A stretch of 32,000 bases of DNA, taken from NCBI RefSeq assembly GCF_000008305.1, contig NC_006055.1:30001-62000 (forward strand). The letters are read 5' to 3'. Origin of the DNA: Mesoplasma florum L1 (GTDB lineage: Bacteria; Bacillota_I; Bacilli_A; Mycoplasmatales; Mycoplasmataceae). Below are positions 1,858-10,035 of the stretch, piece by piece. The first letter of the stretch is position 1; every line of letters begins with the position of its first letter. The notes beneath the pieces were generated by a model, which made no database searches, had not been told where the DNA came from, and worked only from the letters and a program-made list of their open reading frames with translations. The position numbers and the translations under genes were made by a program.

Positions 1858-1976
1858 GTGACTCTTATTTAATTTGTATATATAATAATATCACAAAAAT
1901 TAACACTTAACATTGTATTTAGTTTTTATAAAAAATAAATAATATATTATAATATCTTTAACTTAATAAAAATTAA

Positions 1977-2037
1977 CTTATACATGATAACATATCGGGT
2001 TGTCGACCTGCCTTAAGACCGATCTTAAGACTATAAG
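1977..2037 (+). promoter_or_regulatory. Purine-riboswitch-fold aptamer (variant, junction differs from the copy at 1006)
   Basis: P1 cttata (1977-1982) / tataag (2032-2037). P2 ataac-atatcgg-gttgt. J2/3 cgacctgc. P3 cttaaga-ccga-tcttaag. J3/1 is AC. Confidence 0.75.
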
Positions 2038-2070
2038 AAAATAAATATTATAAAACATTAAGTTGCTTCT

Positions 2071-2115: not shown

Positions 2116-4194
2116 ATGAAAAAATTATTATTAACTTTATCTTCTGTAACACTTGTTGGTACAGCAGGTATGAGCGTTATCTCATGTGGGGTAAAACCAG
2201 AAAAATCTGTTATATTTATGCTTCCAGGTGAAGCTGTGGGAGTAGGATCAACAGATAAAATTGATGCTTATAATGATTTAGTTGATGAATTCAATGAATT
2301 ACATAAAAATGATTCAGGATTTGCGCCAATTAAAGTAAAGTGATCAAAATCAGGAACAATCAATGATTCAATCTTAACAGGTGATAATTTACCTGATTTA
2401 TATATAAGTTATGCAGATGCAGTTTCATTGTATGCAAATACAAAAGTATCTAATCAAGTGAGAGACATGGAAGCTTCATTAGGTGAAGCAGGATTTGCAA
2501 ACTTAAAAAATGACATAATAGATGATGCTTTTTTACAAGAAGGACAATATAAAGAACAGGGAAGTGACAAAGCAACTCAAGTTGTTTTACCATTTGGTAA
2601 ATCAGTTGAAATGTCAGTTATTAACGTAAACTTTTTCTTAGAATTTATTTCAAAAATTAGTATTACAGATTTTGATGGAGCATCAATTTCGCCTAAAGTT
2701 AAAACTGAGTTTGAAAAATTTAATGTTAATGAAAGAAAAAATTTAACTAATGAAACAGGTGCAATGTCTAAAACAACAATTTTTAGTGATAAAACTCCTA
2801 AGTTAAATGAACAATGATTCACAGAACATGGTTTAAATGATGCTTTAACAACACTACAAACTGCTTTAGCACCATTAACAAGCGTTGGATCTAGTTCATA
2901 CACAGGAGAATCTGTAGATGATCTAATTAGAACTATTTTTGCTAAAAATGATAATATAATAGCTTTAGCACAAGTTTACAACGAGATATTTAATGTTGAA
3001 AGTAATATTGAAGTTAAATATGCAAGTAAAGACGGAAGCGTTGTTGTAGATCCTTCAAATGGAAAACATTTTTCATTTGGAATTGATTCTTTAGCAAATA
3101 AATATTTTATGGACCATGCGGCTAGAACTAATAGCGGTTTAATTGATATTACTAATGAAGATAATGGTTTTTTCTACAGTGCAAATTATGATAAAGCAAC
3201 TAGAGTAGCAAACGTTAACTTTAATAAGAATTCTGTAGGATTTAATGATACATCAGAATTCTTGCAAGCTTTTAAAGATATTGCTGTTAAAAACAATAAA
3301 AGTGGTGGTTCATACGCTGAACAATGAAATAACACATTAAATTTAAGTAGACAAGAAGGTACAACAAAATACTATACAAGTGATAGCTTTTTAAATGGTT
3401 CTTCATTTATGTCAAGTGGTTCATCAGCAGGGGCTTACAATTTTACCAAAACAAAATATGTAAATAATACAGGGTATAATCCTGTTACAAATGCTGATGT
3501 AATAACAACTTCAACTTCAACTAAAGAAGGGAAAAATTCAGTTTTCATGTCTCAAGGTCCAGGAATAGCAGGATTCAAATCAAATGGTTCAAATGCAGCT
3601 GAGAAAGAGAAAACAGTTACAGAATTCTTAAATTATATTATGCAACCAAAACAAGCAGCAGATTTTGCGCTTAAATCAAATTATATGCCTGCAACAAAAT
3701 CTGGTATGTCTATATACCAAAACTATGTAAATGGTAATTACAATAATACAAAAGCAAATAATCAATCAAATGCAATAGTAAATCCAGAAGCATTACAAAA
3801 TGTTGTTGCAGAACTTAACACAAAAGAAGGAACAACAAAATATACAGTAGATAATACTTTTACTGCGATTTATTCAACAAGTAAAGGTTCATTAAGTTCA
3901 CAAGCATCTCCAAATGCAGTTAACTCAGGATTTATTGAAAAATATTTAGTTGGAAATTCAGAAAGAATATTAGTTGCTTCTACACCTACACCTATTGGTA
4001 CAACAGTTCGTGATTCAATTGCAACAGCTATTACTGGTAGTGGAACAATTACAGATTTAAGTAAAGCACCGGGAATTAAATTTGTTGAAATATTAGATGC
4101 ATCAAATACAGTTTATACATTACAAAATTATGTAATGAAAAAAAATAACACAGATATGTTTAGCAAAATTAATTTAACTCACAATGCAAAATAA
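2116..4194 (+). CDS. ABC transporter solute-binding lipoprotein, family-1 (sugar/CUT1-like), 692 aa
   Basis: Lipobox MKKLLLTLSSVTLVGTAGMSVISC. Four track ORFs (2116, 2428, 3109, 3409) share one frame and join through TGA, and I checked the gaps for TAA/TAG. It is the first gene of an ABC operon. It is much longer than typical ~420-aa binding proteins. Confidence 0.75.
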
Positions 4195-4225: not shown

Positions 4226-6583
4226 ATGAGTATTAAACTAAAAAATATAACAATTGACTATGGAAATTTCTTGGCGGTAAATGACCTAAGTGTAAATATT
4301 AATAAAGGGGAACTAGTTTCTCTTTTAGGACCTTCTGGTTGTGGAAAAACAACCGCATTAAATGCTATCGCAGGATTAATAAATACAACATCAGGACAAA
4401 TTCTTTTTGATGGTGTTGATGTTACACACAAAACACCTCAGCAAAGAAATATAGGACTAGTTTTTCAAAGTTACGCATTATATTCACATATGAGTGTTTT
4501 TAAGAATATTGCATATCCTTTATATCACTCAAAAGATTTTAAAAAAGAATTAGCAAGAGACAATTTTAAATATAAAAATAGATTAAAAGATCTAAAACAA
4601 ACAAAATCATACGAATTAATAATTAAACAACAAAATGATTTTTTAAATGATCTTAAAAGCTTTTTAAAATTAACAAATAATAATATTAAATTGTTAGAAA
4701 CAGAGTTTTTAAAAAAACATAAAGATTCAATTATTTCATATACTGATCAACTTTTCATAAATTATGAAAATTCAGAAGTATTAAAAAATCATTTAGTTAG
4801 CTACTTATATGACAAACTAAAAATTAAATTTAATGAAATTGAATCTGTTATAGAGTCAACAATTTTAAAAAAATATAAATTGTTATTAACTCATAAATTA
4901 GACGTTAGATTTCAAGGAACAATTGGTTATTACAGTTGATTAAATGAAAAAAATGTAAAAGATAATAAAAAACACTTGGCAGAACTTATCAAAACTAGCA
5001 AAATTTCAAAAAAACAAATTAGAAAAGAACAAAAAAAAGTTAGTGCTGAATTAGATATTTTTACTGCTTCTTCAACAGAAAATGGGTATGATAATTATAT
5101 TAATTCTAAAAACTTAATTACAAATTCTTTTATTGAGAATGAAGTAGCAGAACTTGAAAAAGAAATAAATGATTATTTTGATAAAGTTTTATTAAAAACA
5201 AAAGAACCAATTATAAAAAACAATAAAATTGAAAATTCTATTTCAAATATTTCAAAAAAAATTAATGCATTTAAAGTAAGTTATTTAAGTAAACATGAAA
5301 AATTAATTGTTAAATATATAAAAAGTATTTCAAACAAATTTCCTAATGAAATAGAAATAAAAGATAATTTAATTAATTACTTGTTTAATATATCAAAAAT
5401 AGAATTTAATTCTGTTCAAGAAAAGTTAAATGAGTTGATTTTTGAAAATATGCAAAGTTTTGTAAATTCTTGTGATAAAGATGAGTTTACTCAGTTAATA
5501 AATTATTATCCTTTAAATGTGAATGCATATTTAGAAGTTAGTGAATCAAGTAATGAACTTTTAAAAATTAATAATGAATTACAAAAGAATACTGATTTTG
5601 ATACATTAAATGATAATGAACATTATAAAAATTATCTTACTGAAAAAGAACAATTAACAGAATCATTGCTTTCAGAATTTGTTGTAAAATTGGAAAACTT
5701 TATTTCTGAAACTTTTGATAAATTACCAATTTTAGTTAATAATGAATTATCAAAAAATTCAATAAAAATTGATATTTCGGAATTAGAATCAGAAATTAGA
5801 AAAAATATTTTTTCAAAAAAACGTAAAATAAGATCATTAGTTTTAGAAGCTGCAAAACAAGTTGAAATTGAAACACAATTAAATAAAAAACCAAGTGAAT
5901 TATCTGGTGGACAACAACAAAGGGTTGCTATCGCAAGGGCTGTTGTAAAAAAACCAAGTATTTTACTTATGGACGAACCATTATCAAATCTTGATGCAAA
6001 ATTACGTTTAACAACTAGAGAATGAATTAAAAAATTTCAACAAAAAGTTGGAATAACAACTGTTTTTGTTACTCACGATCAAGAAGAAGCAATGAGTATT
6101 TCTGACTCAATTTTTGTTATGAATAAAGGGGTTTTACAACAAGGCGGAACTCCATTAGAAATTTATAATAAACCAAAAAATAAATTTGTAGCAAACTTTA
6201 TAGGAACACCTAATATTAATTTCATTGATGTTAAAGTCAAAAAATCTATTTTTGAATTGCCTTCAGGCGAGGAAATGACTATTAAAAATTTAAAAATTGA
6301 AAAAGAAAATTGAACTTTAGGAATTAGACCTGAAAGAATAAGTATTTCAGGAACTAAAGGTAAAATTTTCATTGGAGAAGGTGAAGTTTCTCTTGTCGAA
6401 CAATTAGGAAAACAAAATCATATTAAAGTTCGCTTAAATAAAGAATTGGAAATTACTTTAATATTAGAGCCACATGAATGAAATAATTTAAAAAATTCTT
6501 CAGTGTTAAAGCTTTATGCTAGAAAAGAAGACTTATACTTATTTGATACAAATACAAATTTAGTAGAGGTAAAATATGCGTAA
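4226..6583 (+). CDS. ABC transporter ATP-binding protein, MalK/UgpC-like, with a ~430-aa insertion (785 aa)
   Basis: Walker [11 protein letters not shown]-loop VFQSYALY, signature [14 protein letters not shown], Walker [14 protein letters not shown]-loop VTHD, and a C-terminal regulatory-type domain (FIGTPNINF...). Track ORFs 4226, 4976 and 6092 are in one frame, ending at TAA 6581-6583. Confidence 0.9.
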
Positions 6584-7565
6584 AAATAAGAAAGATGAAG
6601 GTTTTGTTTTAATTGATGATAGAGTTATAAATCCTAAAGGTAAAAAAGCAAAATCTAAAAATATGGAAAAAGGAAGATTTGACCTAATAAACCAATTAAT
6701 TTGGGTTTTACCAGGTTTATTCTTTGTATGTATATTTTCATACTTTTCAATTTTTATTGTTTTTAAATATGGATTAAGTGCGAATGGTGCAAATGGTGTT
6801 TTTATATTAAGCATTAAAAATATAGGTAATTTATTTACTGAGCCTACGCATGAATTTCCAATAGCGTTAAGAAATACTTTAATTTATGTTTTAGTTTCAG
6901 TGCCAATTTCATTGCTGATTGCACTTTGAACTGCCAAAGCATTAAGTAACGTTTTAAGTAAAAGAGCTTTTGCTTTTTTCCAATCAGCTTTCTTTTTACC
7001 ATATGTAACATCAGCACTTGCTGTTGCTATGGCTTTCTCAATATTATTTTCAACAAGTGATACATCTCTTTTAACACAATTATTAGCTAAATTAGGTTTA
7101 TCAAGGGTTGATTGAAAAGAACCTAAAAATGCTATGATAATGTTAATCATTTATGGTGTTTGAAAAATGTTACCTTTTAAAATTATTATGTTTACAGCAG
7201 CATTTTTAAGAGTTGATAAGCGATTATATCAAGCAGCATCTATAGACGGTGTACCAAGATGACAACAATTTTGAAAAATTTCTGTTCCTCAAATTATGCC
7301 AGTTATTATTTATATGATTACAACTGGTATTATTGGTTCATTTAAATTTATGCCTTTTGGTTTATTTGCTAACTATGAGGAAGCGGTTAAATCACAAGCT
7401 CAAACAGCAGTGTTCTTTATCTTTTCAAGAATTAACTCTGGTTCAGGAGGATTACCATCATATAGTACTGGTGGAGCAGCTTCTATAGTATTAATGGTTA
7501 TTATTTTAATTATGACGTTAGCTAATAGACAATTAAGTAAGTACTTAAACAAAAAATATAGATAG
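6576..7565 (+). CDS. ABC transporter permease (MalF/UgpA-like), 329 aa
   Basis: The ATG overlaps the ATPase stop by 8 nt. Multiple hydrophobic segments. EAA-type loop ASIDGVPRWQQFWKISVPQIMP. ORFs 6576 and 7296 join in frame through TGA. Confidence 0.85.
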
Positions 7566-7573
7566 GATTCAGC

Positions 7574-8899
7574 ATGGAAAAAATAAATAACGAGTGAAGT
7601 AAAAAAACTAAAACTGAAGATTGAATTCACAAAAATTCATTTAAAAAGATTTCTGTTAAAGATAAATCTTTTAATCAATCTGAATCTAATGTTGATTCCA
7701 TTATTTATGTTGAAAAAACAACAAAAGTTGTTAGTTCTGAAAAAGATAAACATGAAATAGTTGTAAATAAATTAACAAGAAAAGAAAAATATGAAAATGA
7801 TTTAAAATTTCAAGAAGAACAAATAACTTTAAGAGAATCTAAAATTGTTGTTGAAGCTAACTTTTTTAAGAGAATATGATTAAAGTTTTGTTTATCATTA
7901 TTTTTATTTTGAAATAAAAAACATTTTAAAATTAAGCACGCATTTTATATAAGATCAGTAAATAAAAGAAAAGATAAAACAATTAAAATGGCTGGTGATG
8001 TTTGATATAGAAGAATAGGGTCAAATTTATCAAACTATACAGTTTTAATTATTATGCTTATCGCCATGATATTTCCTTTTTATTGAATGTTAATAACATC
8101 TTTTAAGCCTTATTCAGAAGTTGACACAGGAGTAATGGAATCTCTTTGACCAAAACATTGAACATTACAAGCATATAAAGATATGTTTACATTTGTTAAT
8201 AATTCTGGTGGTAGAGAATCAATTCCATTTTCAAGATTTTTCTTTAACTCATTGTTCATTGCGTTAGTTTCAACTTTAGTGCAATTATCAGTGTCAGTTA
8301 TTGGTGGATTTGCAATTTATAACTGAAGAACAAAATTTAATTCATTATTTATGATTATTATGTTTTCAATTATGATGGTTCCAGGTGAGGCTATGTTGCT
8401 TGGTAGATATTGAATTGCAGTTCAAATGCAATGAAGAGATACTTTATTTGCCTTAATTGTTCCATTTATCGGTAACGTATTTACCATATACTTAATGAGT
8501 AATGCTTTTTACGGATTAAATAGAGATTTAAAAAGAGCAGCTAAAGTAGATGGATTATCAAGTTTTCAATACTTTATGAAAATAGCTTTACCTGCAGTTA
8601 GTGCAACTATATTAACATCATTTATTATTTCATTTATTGAATCATGAAACTCTGTTTTATGACCAATAACAGTTATTGATAATCAATCTGGACAATGAAG
8701 AACAATTCCAATGCTTTTATATTCACTAATGAATGTTAGTGGTATGACATCAGAAGAATTCCCAATTGCTGATCCTATTAATGTAAAAATGGCTGCCTCA
8801 ATTTTAGCTATTTTACCAATGATTATTGTATTTATTGTTTTCAATAAATGAATTATTAATGGTTTAACAAAAAGAAGCGTTGGAGGAACTAAGGGATAA
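7574..8899 (+). CDS. ABC transporter permease (MalG/UgpE-like) with a ~140-aa N-terminal extension, 441 aa
   Basis: Absent from the track because it has 15 in-frame TGA codons by my count. Hand translation gives no TAA/TAG. EAA loop RAAKVDGLSSFQYFMKIALPAVS. Ends at TAA 8897-8899. Confidence 0.85.
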
Positions 8900-10035
8900 T
8901 GAGAAAAAAAATAAACTTGCTATTTTTAAGCATGATACTTACTTTAATAGCTTTTTTGTCTATTTTAACAGTTTCTTGTGGAACTAAAATAAAAGAAATT
9001 ACCGGCAATGTTTCATTTTATGTATTATCAATTGGAAGTGGAAATTTTACTTTTTTAGAAAAAGATGGTCATGCAGTTGTAATGGATTCTGGGGTTGGTA
9101 TTGGTGAAAATAACAATGGAGATTCAATTGATTCAATATCATCAGAAACATTTGCTTTAAATAACGGAAGTTGAGTAACTGCAAATCCAAGGGATGGTAA
9201 AGCAATTACAGATTTTATGAAGAATACAGCTGGAGTTCAAGTTATTGATGCTATATTTATTTCGCACAAACATTCAGATCATTATAGTGCTTTAAAATAT
9301 CTTGTTCAGGAATTTGAAGTAGGAACTGTTATTGCTCCTACAGATAGTGCAGGTTTAGAAAAAGCAATCAGAGGTTACCAACCAAAAGGTCAAATGCCAG
9401 TAGTTGATACAAATTTTTCGAAGACTTATGAATTTTTAGGTGGAACATTTGAAAATTTAACAGCATATTCTTCAAAAAATGTTGTTAAAAGTTTATACAC
9501 AACAGATGATCCAAATGCCAATAGTATGGTTTTAAGATTTAAGGTAAATGGTAAAACATTTTTATTACCTGGAGATATGGAAAATACTTCAAAAGTTATG
9601 AGCGACAAAAAATTTTTAAAAGCAGTTTCATCACAACCTGTGGACTTTTATTTACTTGCTCATCATGGGTCAACAAATGGGGCCACTGAATTAACACCAT
9701 TAATTGGTAATAAAGAACGCTCTCCAGAACATATAATAATATCTGGTACAGATAATATTGATGGTTTTGAAAATTGATCAGGACAAAGAAATGCAGTGAG
9801 CAATTCAAAAACTCCTGTTGGTGAAGTTTTAAAAACATATGGTATGAAAAAAGAACCTTATGTATACATAACAGGCTCAGTTTTAACTGAAACTTTAAAT
9901 GATTTTCCTGACATAGTTGATAAAGATAATGTAAAATCAACGTTTGAATATAAATTCTCTGATAACAAATGAAATTTTATAGTTCATGATGAAAATATTT
10001 CAAATGGGTTTAATCAACAGTTAATTACTAAATAA
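8899..10035 (+). CDS. Surface lipoprotein with ComEC/Rec2-type metallo-beta-lactamase-fold hydrolase domain, 378 aa
   Basis: TAATG overlap with the upstream permease. Lipobox LSILTVSCGT. MBL motifs VVMDSGVG, HKHSDH (HxHxDH), LLPGDME and LLAHHGS. ORFs 8899 and 9217 join in frame, ending at TAA 10033-10035. Confidence 0.8.

Follow-up and report, generated by a model that had tools for sequence, protein, structure and literature searches.

The ATPase of a type I ATP-binding cassette (ABC) importer is commonly pictured as a compact motor of 240 residues, to which an optional C-terminal regulatory domain may be added, and the gene mfl024 of Mesoplasma florum L1 raises the question of what a second and larger domain is doing inside that motor, at the loop that touches the coupling helices of the permeases. 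The gene lies in a stretch of 32,000 nucleotides (contig NC_006055.1, genome positions 30001-62000; hereafter the window, in whose numbering coordinates are given unless stated otherwise) as an open reading frame at 4226-6583 on the + strand, which under genetic code table 4 (TGA read as Trp) is translated into 785 amino acids. Its identity as mfl024 / YP_053264.1 was established from the coordinates 34226-36583 in the supplements of two published studies (PMC7745072; PMC5893858).

The explanation that accounts best for the observations overall, and which is favored with somewhat better than even confidence, is that mfl024 encodes an active CUT1 ATPase carrying a grafted and duplicated all-alpha domain with a probable docking or lever role. 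The parts of the gene to which the argument refers are listed here.

4226..6583, + strand: mfl024, a 785-residue MalK/MsmX-type ABC ATPase with an insertion, assigned from profile, structure and coordinate matches
4226..4537, + strand: N-terminal piece of the nucleotide-binding domain (NBD), residues 1-104, with Walker A, the Q-loop and the first helix of the helical subdomain (PH0203 (2it1) residues 3-110; MalK/UgpC profile positions 1 to ~105)
4538..5818, + strand: inserted domain, predicted all-alpha, residues ~105-531, with no counterpart in MalK-family profiles or structures
4646..5125, + strand: repeat module 1, residues 141-300, common to single-module orthologues and aligned by hhalign
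4964..5038, + strand: residues 247-271, the most basic and among the best-conserved stretches of the insert, with the pattern K-T-x-K-x-x-K-K and a net charge of +8 in 25 residues
5222..5662, + strand: repeat module 2, residues 333-479, found by a 21-residue window scan and by hhalign
5819..6205, + strand: C-terminal piece of the NBD, residues 532-660, with the second helix of the helical subdomain, LSGGQ, Walker B, D-loop and H-loop (MalK residues 105 to ~240)
6206..6580, + strand: C-terminal MalK-type regulatory domain of OB/TOBE beta-barrels (Pfam TOBE_2, 24.5 bits against a cut-off of 21)

Regarding the catalytic core, a preliminary description made from the letters of the sequence had placed Walker A and the Q-loop within residues 35-85 and the LSGGQ signature at residue 559, and this placement is borne out by the translation and by the alignments. 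The motifs are Walker A (GPSGCGKT, residues 35-42), the Q-loop (Q81), the signature (LSGGQ, residues 559-563, at nt 5900), Walker B (ILLMDEP, residues 579-585), the D-loop (SNLD, residues 587-590) and the H-loop (H617), and these are invariant across 82 Mollicute homologues. At the C-terminus, the OB_MalK profile scored 23 bits, below its cut-off of 27, and the structural model has beta strands between residues 665 and 780. When the full model was compared with MalK-family structures, template-modelling (TM) scores normalised to the target were 0.80-0.88, which indicates that the core is undisturbed by the insert. Thus, the gene product has all NBD motifs and the C-terminal regulatory domain of a MalK/MsmX-type CUT1 ATPase, and is encoded in an operon with two permeases and a binding protein.

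The extent and site of the insertion were determined from alignments to the same family. The NCBIfam profiles of MalK, UgpC, GlcV and PotA match mfl024 in two pieces, with profile position ~105 joining residue ~530, and phmmer against solved structures placed query residues 2-109 on residues 3-110 of PH0203 and query residues 532-778 on residues 107-354; in the alignment to Escherichia coli MalK, query residue 530 falls at MalK residue 104-105. It follows from these two-piece alignments that about 425 residues of mfl024 (~105-531) are pure insertion, and the insertion of about 430 residues proposed beforehand at 4526-5815 agrees with this alignment-derived interval (nt ~4538-5818). By the same alignments, helices 1 and 2 of the helical subdomain flank the insertion, which corresponds in position to MalK ~104-105. 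The proposal that it sits in the helical subdomain by the permease-coupling surface is likewise supported, the site being inside a region of the MalK helical domain (residues 99-112) that is described, in a published MalFGK2 simulation, as external and flexible, as touching the coupling helices directly and as the most sensitive to nucleotide state (PMC3150292). Regarding composition, residues 101-530 consist of 14% K, 12% L, 12% N, 10% E, 10% I and 9% S, and the GC content is 18-20% in the insert against 25-30% in the flanks.

A reading frame of this kind could in principle be an artefact or a product of decay, whether through misassembly, a frameshift in a pseudogene or the reading of two genes as one, and this must be regarded as highly improbable given that the frame contains no TAA or TAG in the 430 codons of the insert, where the other five frames contain 12-47 and the chance calculated from base composition is ~5e-19. 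The frame was checked in five orthologous loci, including one other M. florum strain (CP022512). In this independently assembled strain the gene has the same 785 codons, and the insert differs at 40 synonymous and 40 non-synonymous positions without an indel; in the four further loci, from related species, the frame is intact with a spacing from Walker A to the signature of 451-534 residues, and intact orthologues occur in many species. The two TGA codons reported previously at 4937-4939 (W238) and 6023-6025 (W600) are correct, and two more were found downstream (W696 and W752), so that four are present in the gene, only W238 being within the insert. In the published transcriptome data, a transcription start site at genome position 31959 opens the single transcription unit TU_023 (31959-40085), which spans all five genes of the operon, and no internal start inside mfl024 is given in the passages of the transcript table examined (PMC7745072). 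The protein was also detected by mass spectrometry: Dataset EV6 of that study gives 785 amino acids, 90.6 kDa, 36 validated unique peptides and 144 validated peptide-spectrum matches, with 45.1% coverage and ~131 molecules per cell (PMC7745072). Since peptide positions are absent from the table, it demonstrates expression and is not by itself proof that the insert is present in the mature protein.

Ratios of non-synonymous to synonymous substitution (dN/dS), calculated by the Nei-Gojobori method, show that the insert is under purifying selection and evolves several times faster than the core, with module 2 the least constrained part. Between the window and strain CP022512 the ratio was 0.034 for the core and 0.197 for the insert (0.10 in module 1 and 0.43 in module 2), in an independent pair of related genomes it was 0.04 and 0.20, and between the window and one genome of that pair 0.05 and 0.32. 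Ten insert positions (Y172, Y193, L194, D196, T257, K262, I265, I278, F279 and Y288) show no variation among 19 sequences of Mesoplasma, Entomoplasma and Spiroplasma, down to 24% insert identity. The interpretation of the preliminary description as a functional domain insertion and not decay is therefore upheld by the intact motifs, the frame that is open in independent assemblies, the purifying selection, a confident structural model and the detected protein, and it is very probable that the insert is a real, maintained and folded domain.

Regarding its structure, AlphaFold2 modelled full-length mfl024 from the 82-sequence alignment with a predicted local distance difference test score (pLDDT) of 88.0 and a predicted TM-score (pTM) of 0.75, and the insert alone with a pLDDT of 88.3 and a pTM of 0.76, the secondary structure being unchanged from the full-length model. 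The predicted helices of the insert span residues 103-125, 130-176, 184-222, 230-272, 288-326, 334-371, 376-415, 442-455, 465-498, 500-511 and 518-526. In a simple Fourier test of hydrophobic periodicity, which is not a trained predictor, power at a period of 3.5 residues was 0.01-0.30 as against 0.23-1.35 at 3.67 in seven of the seven helices of at least 34 residues, and both module copies showed the same pattern. The K/N/E/I-rich composition noted earlier was confirmed, while the heptad-like coiled coil suggested with it was not, as a periodicity of 3.6-3.67 exceeds that of 3.5 in all of these long helices. On the model, the insert looks like an all-alpha, bundle-type domain of straight amphipathic helices, a reading preferred to a heptad coiled coil on the strength of this periodicity. 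No solved helical-repeat domain, spectrin-like or similar, gave a significant structural match to the insert model.

The same data bear on the proposal that the insert is a canonical two-stranded coiled-coil arm, pairing with its counterpart in the partner ATPase subunit or with further complexes and dimerising or clustering transporters in the manner of SMC and Rad50. The length of the helices (34-47 residues), the position between Q-loop and signature motif, as in SMC/Rad50, and weak precomputed Pfam SMC_N and AAA_21 matches on homologues would be in keeping with such an arm, which is nevertheless judged improbable in view of the periodicity of all seven long helices, of the loops that break the helices every ~40 residues and fold them back, and of the single-chain pTM of 0.76, which fits an intramolecular bundle. 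The fold search also matched neither SMC nor Rad50 nor any coiled-coil protein, and in MalK structures the two helical subdomains are found at opposite ends of the dimer.

Regarding the origin of the insert, the preliminary description had pointed to two related 21-residue motifs, located at residues 188 and 380 and held by modules 1 and 2, respectively, and these proved to be real and to belong to a larger unit. The best ungapped pair of 21-residue segments in the insert (186-206 and 378-398, offset 192) is the pair already recognised, shifted by two residues, and its BLOSUM62 score of 54 was reached in none of 300 shuffles (36 +/- 3.8). Comparison by hhalign of residues 141-300 with 333-479, using sub-alignments built from 11 close homologues, gave a probability of 93.7%, an E-value of 1.8e-7 and a score of 53 over 147 columns; controls scored 14-15 with one side reversed, at most 17 in 40 column shuffles and 50 with both sides reversed. 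Four landmark pairs keep the same order in both copies, including IGYYSWLN/INYYPLN and YDNYINSK/YKNYLTEK, the remaining two being a 12-residue and a 19-residue segment that are each present twice. A self-BLAST of the insert returned no internal repeat, the duplication being visible only by windowed score and profile-profile comparison. By these comparisons the insert holds a tandem duplication of a module of 150-190 residues.

The modules are unevenly distributed among orthologues. Orthologues of 610-640 amino acids, such as the 632-residue protein of M. melaleucae (P0011), carry module 1 only, those of 711-747 amino acids have a shorter, partial second module, and the group of M. florum, M. 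coleopterae and M. tabanidae has both. Judged from the sequences, module 2 is the younger and faster-evolving copy. In the lineage of these three species the domain grew from the ~250-280 residues of related species to ~430 by tandem duplication of the 150-190-residue module.

The distribution of inserts beyond this lineage was investigated by a length-restricted homologue search over 5.8 billion proteins, of which the best 120 long homologues were examined. All named proteins among these 120 are from Mollicutes, in the genera Mesoplasma, Entomoplasma, Williamsoniiplasma, Spiroplasma, Mycoplasma, Mycoplasmopsis, Metamycoplasma and Mesomycoplasma. The spacing from Walker A to LSGGQ is 294-534 residues in nearly all of them (canonical ~98), with the clade of the window at the top, and nearly all have 200-435 extra residues at the site; the exceptions are one protein (P0044) with canonical spacing and four in which the signature pattern was not found. 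In the alignment of 82 sequences, invariance of the flanks extends as far as L99 on one side and resumes at ~V539 on the other, from which it is concluded that the insertion site is the same throughout the Mollicute homologues. On these alignments the insert is not special to mfl024, which is the extreme of a Mollicute-wide property of the orthologous group.

The inserted sequences themselves are far less alike than their site. A HMMER search of 1.84 billion representative proteins with the insert alone gave four matches, all of them Mesoplasma-clade ATPases of the same family, so that the domain has no detectable sequence relative in other protein contexts. Inserts of different Mollicute orders resemble one another detectably only in the first ~25 residues, where a start of the form [S/D]-K-x-[F/W]-K...N is shared, and a profile-profile comparison of the Entomoplasmatales/Spiroplasma inserts with those of the Mycoplasma group scored 19.3, against 17.2 for the reversed control. 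Related ATPases in metagenome-assembled genomes (MAGs) of uncultured gut Bacilli, which use the standard code and some of which are labelled Erysipelotrichaceae or Candidatus Enteromonas, have inserts at the same F-P-L loop.

L020:349-2247: gut-MAG ATPase gene with a 274-residue insert
L014:279-1925: gut-MAG ATPase gene with a 181-residue insert
L021:1345-2655: gut-MAG ATPase gene with a 78-residue insert

The 274-residue insert is apparently mixed alpha/beta, with a repeated unit and normal composition, and in profile-profile comparison the three gut-MAG types scored at control level against the Mollicute inserts. Across the sequences compared, the host loop is a hot spot at which insertions recur within this orthologous group; all inserts may share a common origin, which the profile comparisons neither show nor exclude.

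Other ABC ATPases of the same genome were inspected as well. OppD (522 amino acids) and OppF (620 amino acids), encoded outside the window at C1:117070-120490, have large inserts as well, with Walker A to signature spacings of 286 and 406, respectively. Their scores exceed the cut-offs set for the Mollicute-specific NCBIfam equivalogs MMSYN1_0167/MMSYN1_0168, whose profiles take in these inserts and are 561 and 649 positions long, against ~320-334 for canonical OppD/OppF. The extra sequence of OppD precedes profile position 77 and is at a different site from the MalK-type insert. An ABC ATPase at C1:603170-604258, also outside the window, is of canonical length (~363 codons, as the length of the open frame) with a spacing of 98, so that mfl024 is not alone in this genome in having an ABC ATPase motif pattern of this kind.

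The variability of the inserts gives weight to an alternative in which the domain is a tolerated passenger, grown in a permissive loop by duplication or slippage under AT bias and selected only for being soluble, helical and harmless, with no partner and no role in transport. Unrelated inserts occupy the same site (78, 181 and 274 residues in the gut MAGs and 200-435 in Mollicutes), similarity is not detectable between orders, length is very variable with a clade-specific gain of a whole module, dN/dS reaches 0.43 in the younger module, the composition matches AT bias, and the large inserts of OppD and OppF suggest a general Mollicute tendency in place of a function tied to one transporter. 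A neutral passenger accords less well with the dN/dS values of 0.1-0.2 obtained from two independent pairs for the insert as a whole and for module 1, with the lack of indels between strains at a dS of ~0.2, with the invariance of aromatic and basic positions at low identity, with a confidently predicted tertiary structure in place of disorder, and with the retention of the insert by very small genomes, in which the pressure toward deletion is otherwise strong. This alternative is nonetheless the main rival, judged almost as credible as the docking or lever role, both at well short of even confidence.

Several observations weigh against a domain with a role and are best considered together. 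Compared with the core, the insert evolves at 4-6 times the rate, with a dN/dS of 0.43 in module 2, and in a more distant pair dN/dS was 0.17 for the core and 0.84 for the insert, a value that carries little weight as dS is near saturation. The amino acid composition and the GC content of 18% are what AT-biased mutation would yield. The lack of similarity between the inserts of different orders leaves a specific interaction conserved across the class unsupported, and a Foldseek search of the PDB with the insert model, which gave no match at E<=0.001 (best E 0.065, TM 0.14-0.16), offered no hint of function. The mass-spectrometric coverage of 45.1% is, by coincidence or not, equal to the fraction (45%) of the protein made up by residues outside the insert. 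Finally, mfl024 belongs to the core genes of M. florum strains and is, in transposon data, non-essential in rich medium (PMC5893858).

Regarding the transporter, mfl024 is the second gene of a five-gene operon on the + strand, which encodes a lipoprotein, the ABC ATPase, two permeases with BPD_transp_1 domains and a metallo-beta-lactamase-fold protein, and is preceded by a riboswitch. The features around mfl024 are listed below.

1976..2038, + strand: 2'-deoxyguanosine (2dG-I) riboswitch aptamer in the operon leader (Rfam RF01510, 81.3 bits against a gathering threshold of 51)
2116..4194, + strand: mfl023, a 692-residue surface lipoprotein that is probably the importer's substrate-binding protein (P68 lipoprotein family, weak match; lipoprotein signal)
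6576..7565, + strand: mfl025, a MalF/UgpA-like permease (BPD_transp_1; UgpA-like match)
7574..8899, + strand: mfl026, a MalG/UgpE-like permease (BPD_transp_1 at residues 243-429)
8899..10035, + strand: mfl027, a metallo-beta-lactamase-fold protein annotated as ComEC-like, the last gene of the transcription unit (open reading frame; Lactamase_B match in the orthologue at L031)

The conserved domain label published for mfl023 is 'Periplasmic_Binding_Protein_Type_2' (PMC5893858), and the gene in the same position in Spiroplasma helicoides encodes an SBP_bac_8 protein. The permease mfl026 has an N-terminal extension of ~140 amino acids (7574-7990), the UgpE profile beginning at residue 148. In four operons no clear relation was seen between such an extension and the length of the ATPase insert, the ATPase and permease lengths being 785/441, 632/379, 621/460 and 600/327 amino acids.

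The names given to mfl024 in databases are of little help in assigning a substrate. Under the curated NCBIfam cut-offs its scores are 345.7 against 432 for UgpC, 292.3 against 568 for MalK and 293 against 482 for PotA, and, as none of these cut-offs is reached, the names are no guide to what is transported. Published tables label the protein 'PotA' and 'V_ATPase_I'. The latter name is most likely due to a spurious hit caused by the helical, low-complexity insert.

The genes that accompany the importer in related genomes, like the riboswitch, point elsewhere. In M. melaleucae (L129) the operon consists of a lipoprotein, the ATPase, two permeases and fragments of the metallo-beta-lactamase-fold gene; in S. 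helicoides (L130) the SBP_bac_8 protein is followed by a DHH/DHHA1 phosphoesterase, the ATPase, two permeases and a metallo-beta-lactamase-fold protein; and in Mycoplasmopsis pulmonis (L131) an MG185-type lipoprotein and an SNase nuclease are found with the ATPase and two permeases. The importer operon is thus conserved across Mollicutes beside differing nucleic-acid-degrading enzymes. A role of the importer in the scavenging of nucleic acids is suggested by the 2'-deoxyguanosine riboswitch together with these nuclease, phosphoesterase and metallo-beta-lactamase neighbors, and gene content fits an importer that handles nucleic-acid breakdown products and not sugars or glycerol-3-phosphate.

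How the inserted domain might contribute to such an importer can be outlined from the site, the model and the conserved surface. In the favored explanation, mfl024 would be the active, ATP-hydrolysing subunit of a CUT1-type importer under control of the 2'-deoxyguanosine riboswitch, and the insert an independently folding domain of ~425 residues grafted into a surface loop, in which about nine amphipathic helices of ~40 residues would be packed as bundles. Because the host loop touches the coupling helices and reportedly moves most between nucleotide states, a docking or lever role is proposed for the domain, a proposal which draws on the model and is put forward tentatively, at less than even confidence. 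In every ATP cycle the rigid inserted domain would follow the motion of the helical subdomain, and a partner bound to the insert could modulate coupling. Such a rigid arm may present a docking surface for a protein, a membrane lipid or a nucleic-acid-derived substrate as candidate partners. The likeliest contact surface would be the conserved basic helix 247-271, in which T257, K262 and I265 are invariant in the 19 sequences and K259 nearly so (18 sequences), while the insert as a whole is nearly neutral with a net charge of +1. A more specific version, in which the domain is a Mollicute-specific arm whose basic helix couples the ATP cycle to a cytoplasmic partner and either hands nucleic-acid breakdown products to salvage enzymes or gates import in response to a cytoplasmic signal, is speculative and rather unlikely.

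The case has significance beyond this gene, given that inserts are present in nearly all of the best long homologues examined, across many Mollicute genera, although few known genomes are smaller than those of these bacteria. If the domain has a role, it would represent an unstudied mode of regulating or extending an ABC importer, and if docking to a cytoplasmic partner is true, type I importers would have a built-in accessory domain of a novel kind, whose place at the same hot spot has been taken time and again by unrelated domains in related lineages. If it has no role, it would be a clear case of the growth of a large neutral domain by duplication in a streamlined genome. As M. florum is a non-pathogenic, near-minimal and genetically tractable organism in which the gene is dispensable, the role is directly testable. 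For annotation, the insert has the consequence of pushing these proteins below curated family cut-offs and of drawing spurious labels ('PotA', 'V_ATPase_I').

Among the nearest known systems are the Mollicute orthologues (P0011-P0124), which have the insert at the same site in the same kind of operon, with an MG185-type or substrate-binding lipoprotein and an SNase, DHH or metallo-beta-lactamase-fold gene; their inserts are of 200-340 residues (~250-280 in the nearest single-module relatives), as compared to 425-435 in the clade of the window. MG187 of M. genitalium and MPN134 of M. pneumoniae are taken here to belong to this orthologue group of nuclease-linked importer ATPases. In the literature on MG187, MPN134 and Mollicute MalK-type ATPases no description of an insertion was found, one paper having modelled an Mpn134 dimer on MalK with the insert unmentioned, the exception being MMSYN1_0138 of JCVI-syn3.0 / Mycoplasma mycoides. 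In that study, which gives the closest description in print, an AlphaFold model of MMSYN1_0138 has an ABC alpha/beta domain split at about residue 95, a helical insert of ~290 residues and two C-terminal beta-barrels, and its Walker A and B motifs are reported to be mutated, which is read there as an inactive ATPase (PMC13621843). This three-part architecture is shared with mfl024, the motifs of which are intact, unlike those of MMSYN1_0138. Homology between the two is not established, MMSYN1_0138 not having been recognised in mycoides-group genomes by searches with the whole protein or with the C-terminal domain.

The coiled coils of SMC and Rad50 and the arm of ABC-F proteins are likewise helical elements placed between the Q-loop and the signature motif, on the lobe that is moved by nucleotide. 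The insert of mfl024 resembles these in topology only, its host being a transporter subunit and not a DNA- or ribosome-binding ATPase, and compared to SMC/Rad50 it lacks heptad periodicity, hinge, zinc hook and fold match and consists of ~40-residue helices between loops. The gut Bacilli protein encoded by L020 shares the ATPase family and the host loop after F-P-L, with an insert that shows no similarity to the all-alpha ones of Mollicutes. Regarding the host, the MalK, MsmX, UgpC and SugC ATPases of CUT1 (type I) importers (2it1, 1q12, 2r6g, 6yir and 8ja7) have the same motifs, fold, regulatory domain and operon make-up as mfl024, and the solved chains of the MalK family match it at sequence E-values of 1e-67 to 1e-80; mfl024 differs from them by ~425 extra residues and a Walker A to LSGGQ spacing of 524 against ~98. 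Neither sequence nor fold places the inserted domain in a known family, while every feature tested makes the protein that carries it a MalK/MsmX family member.

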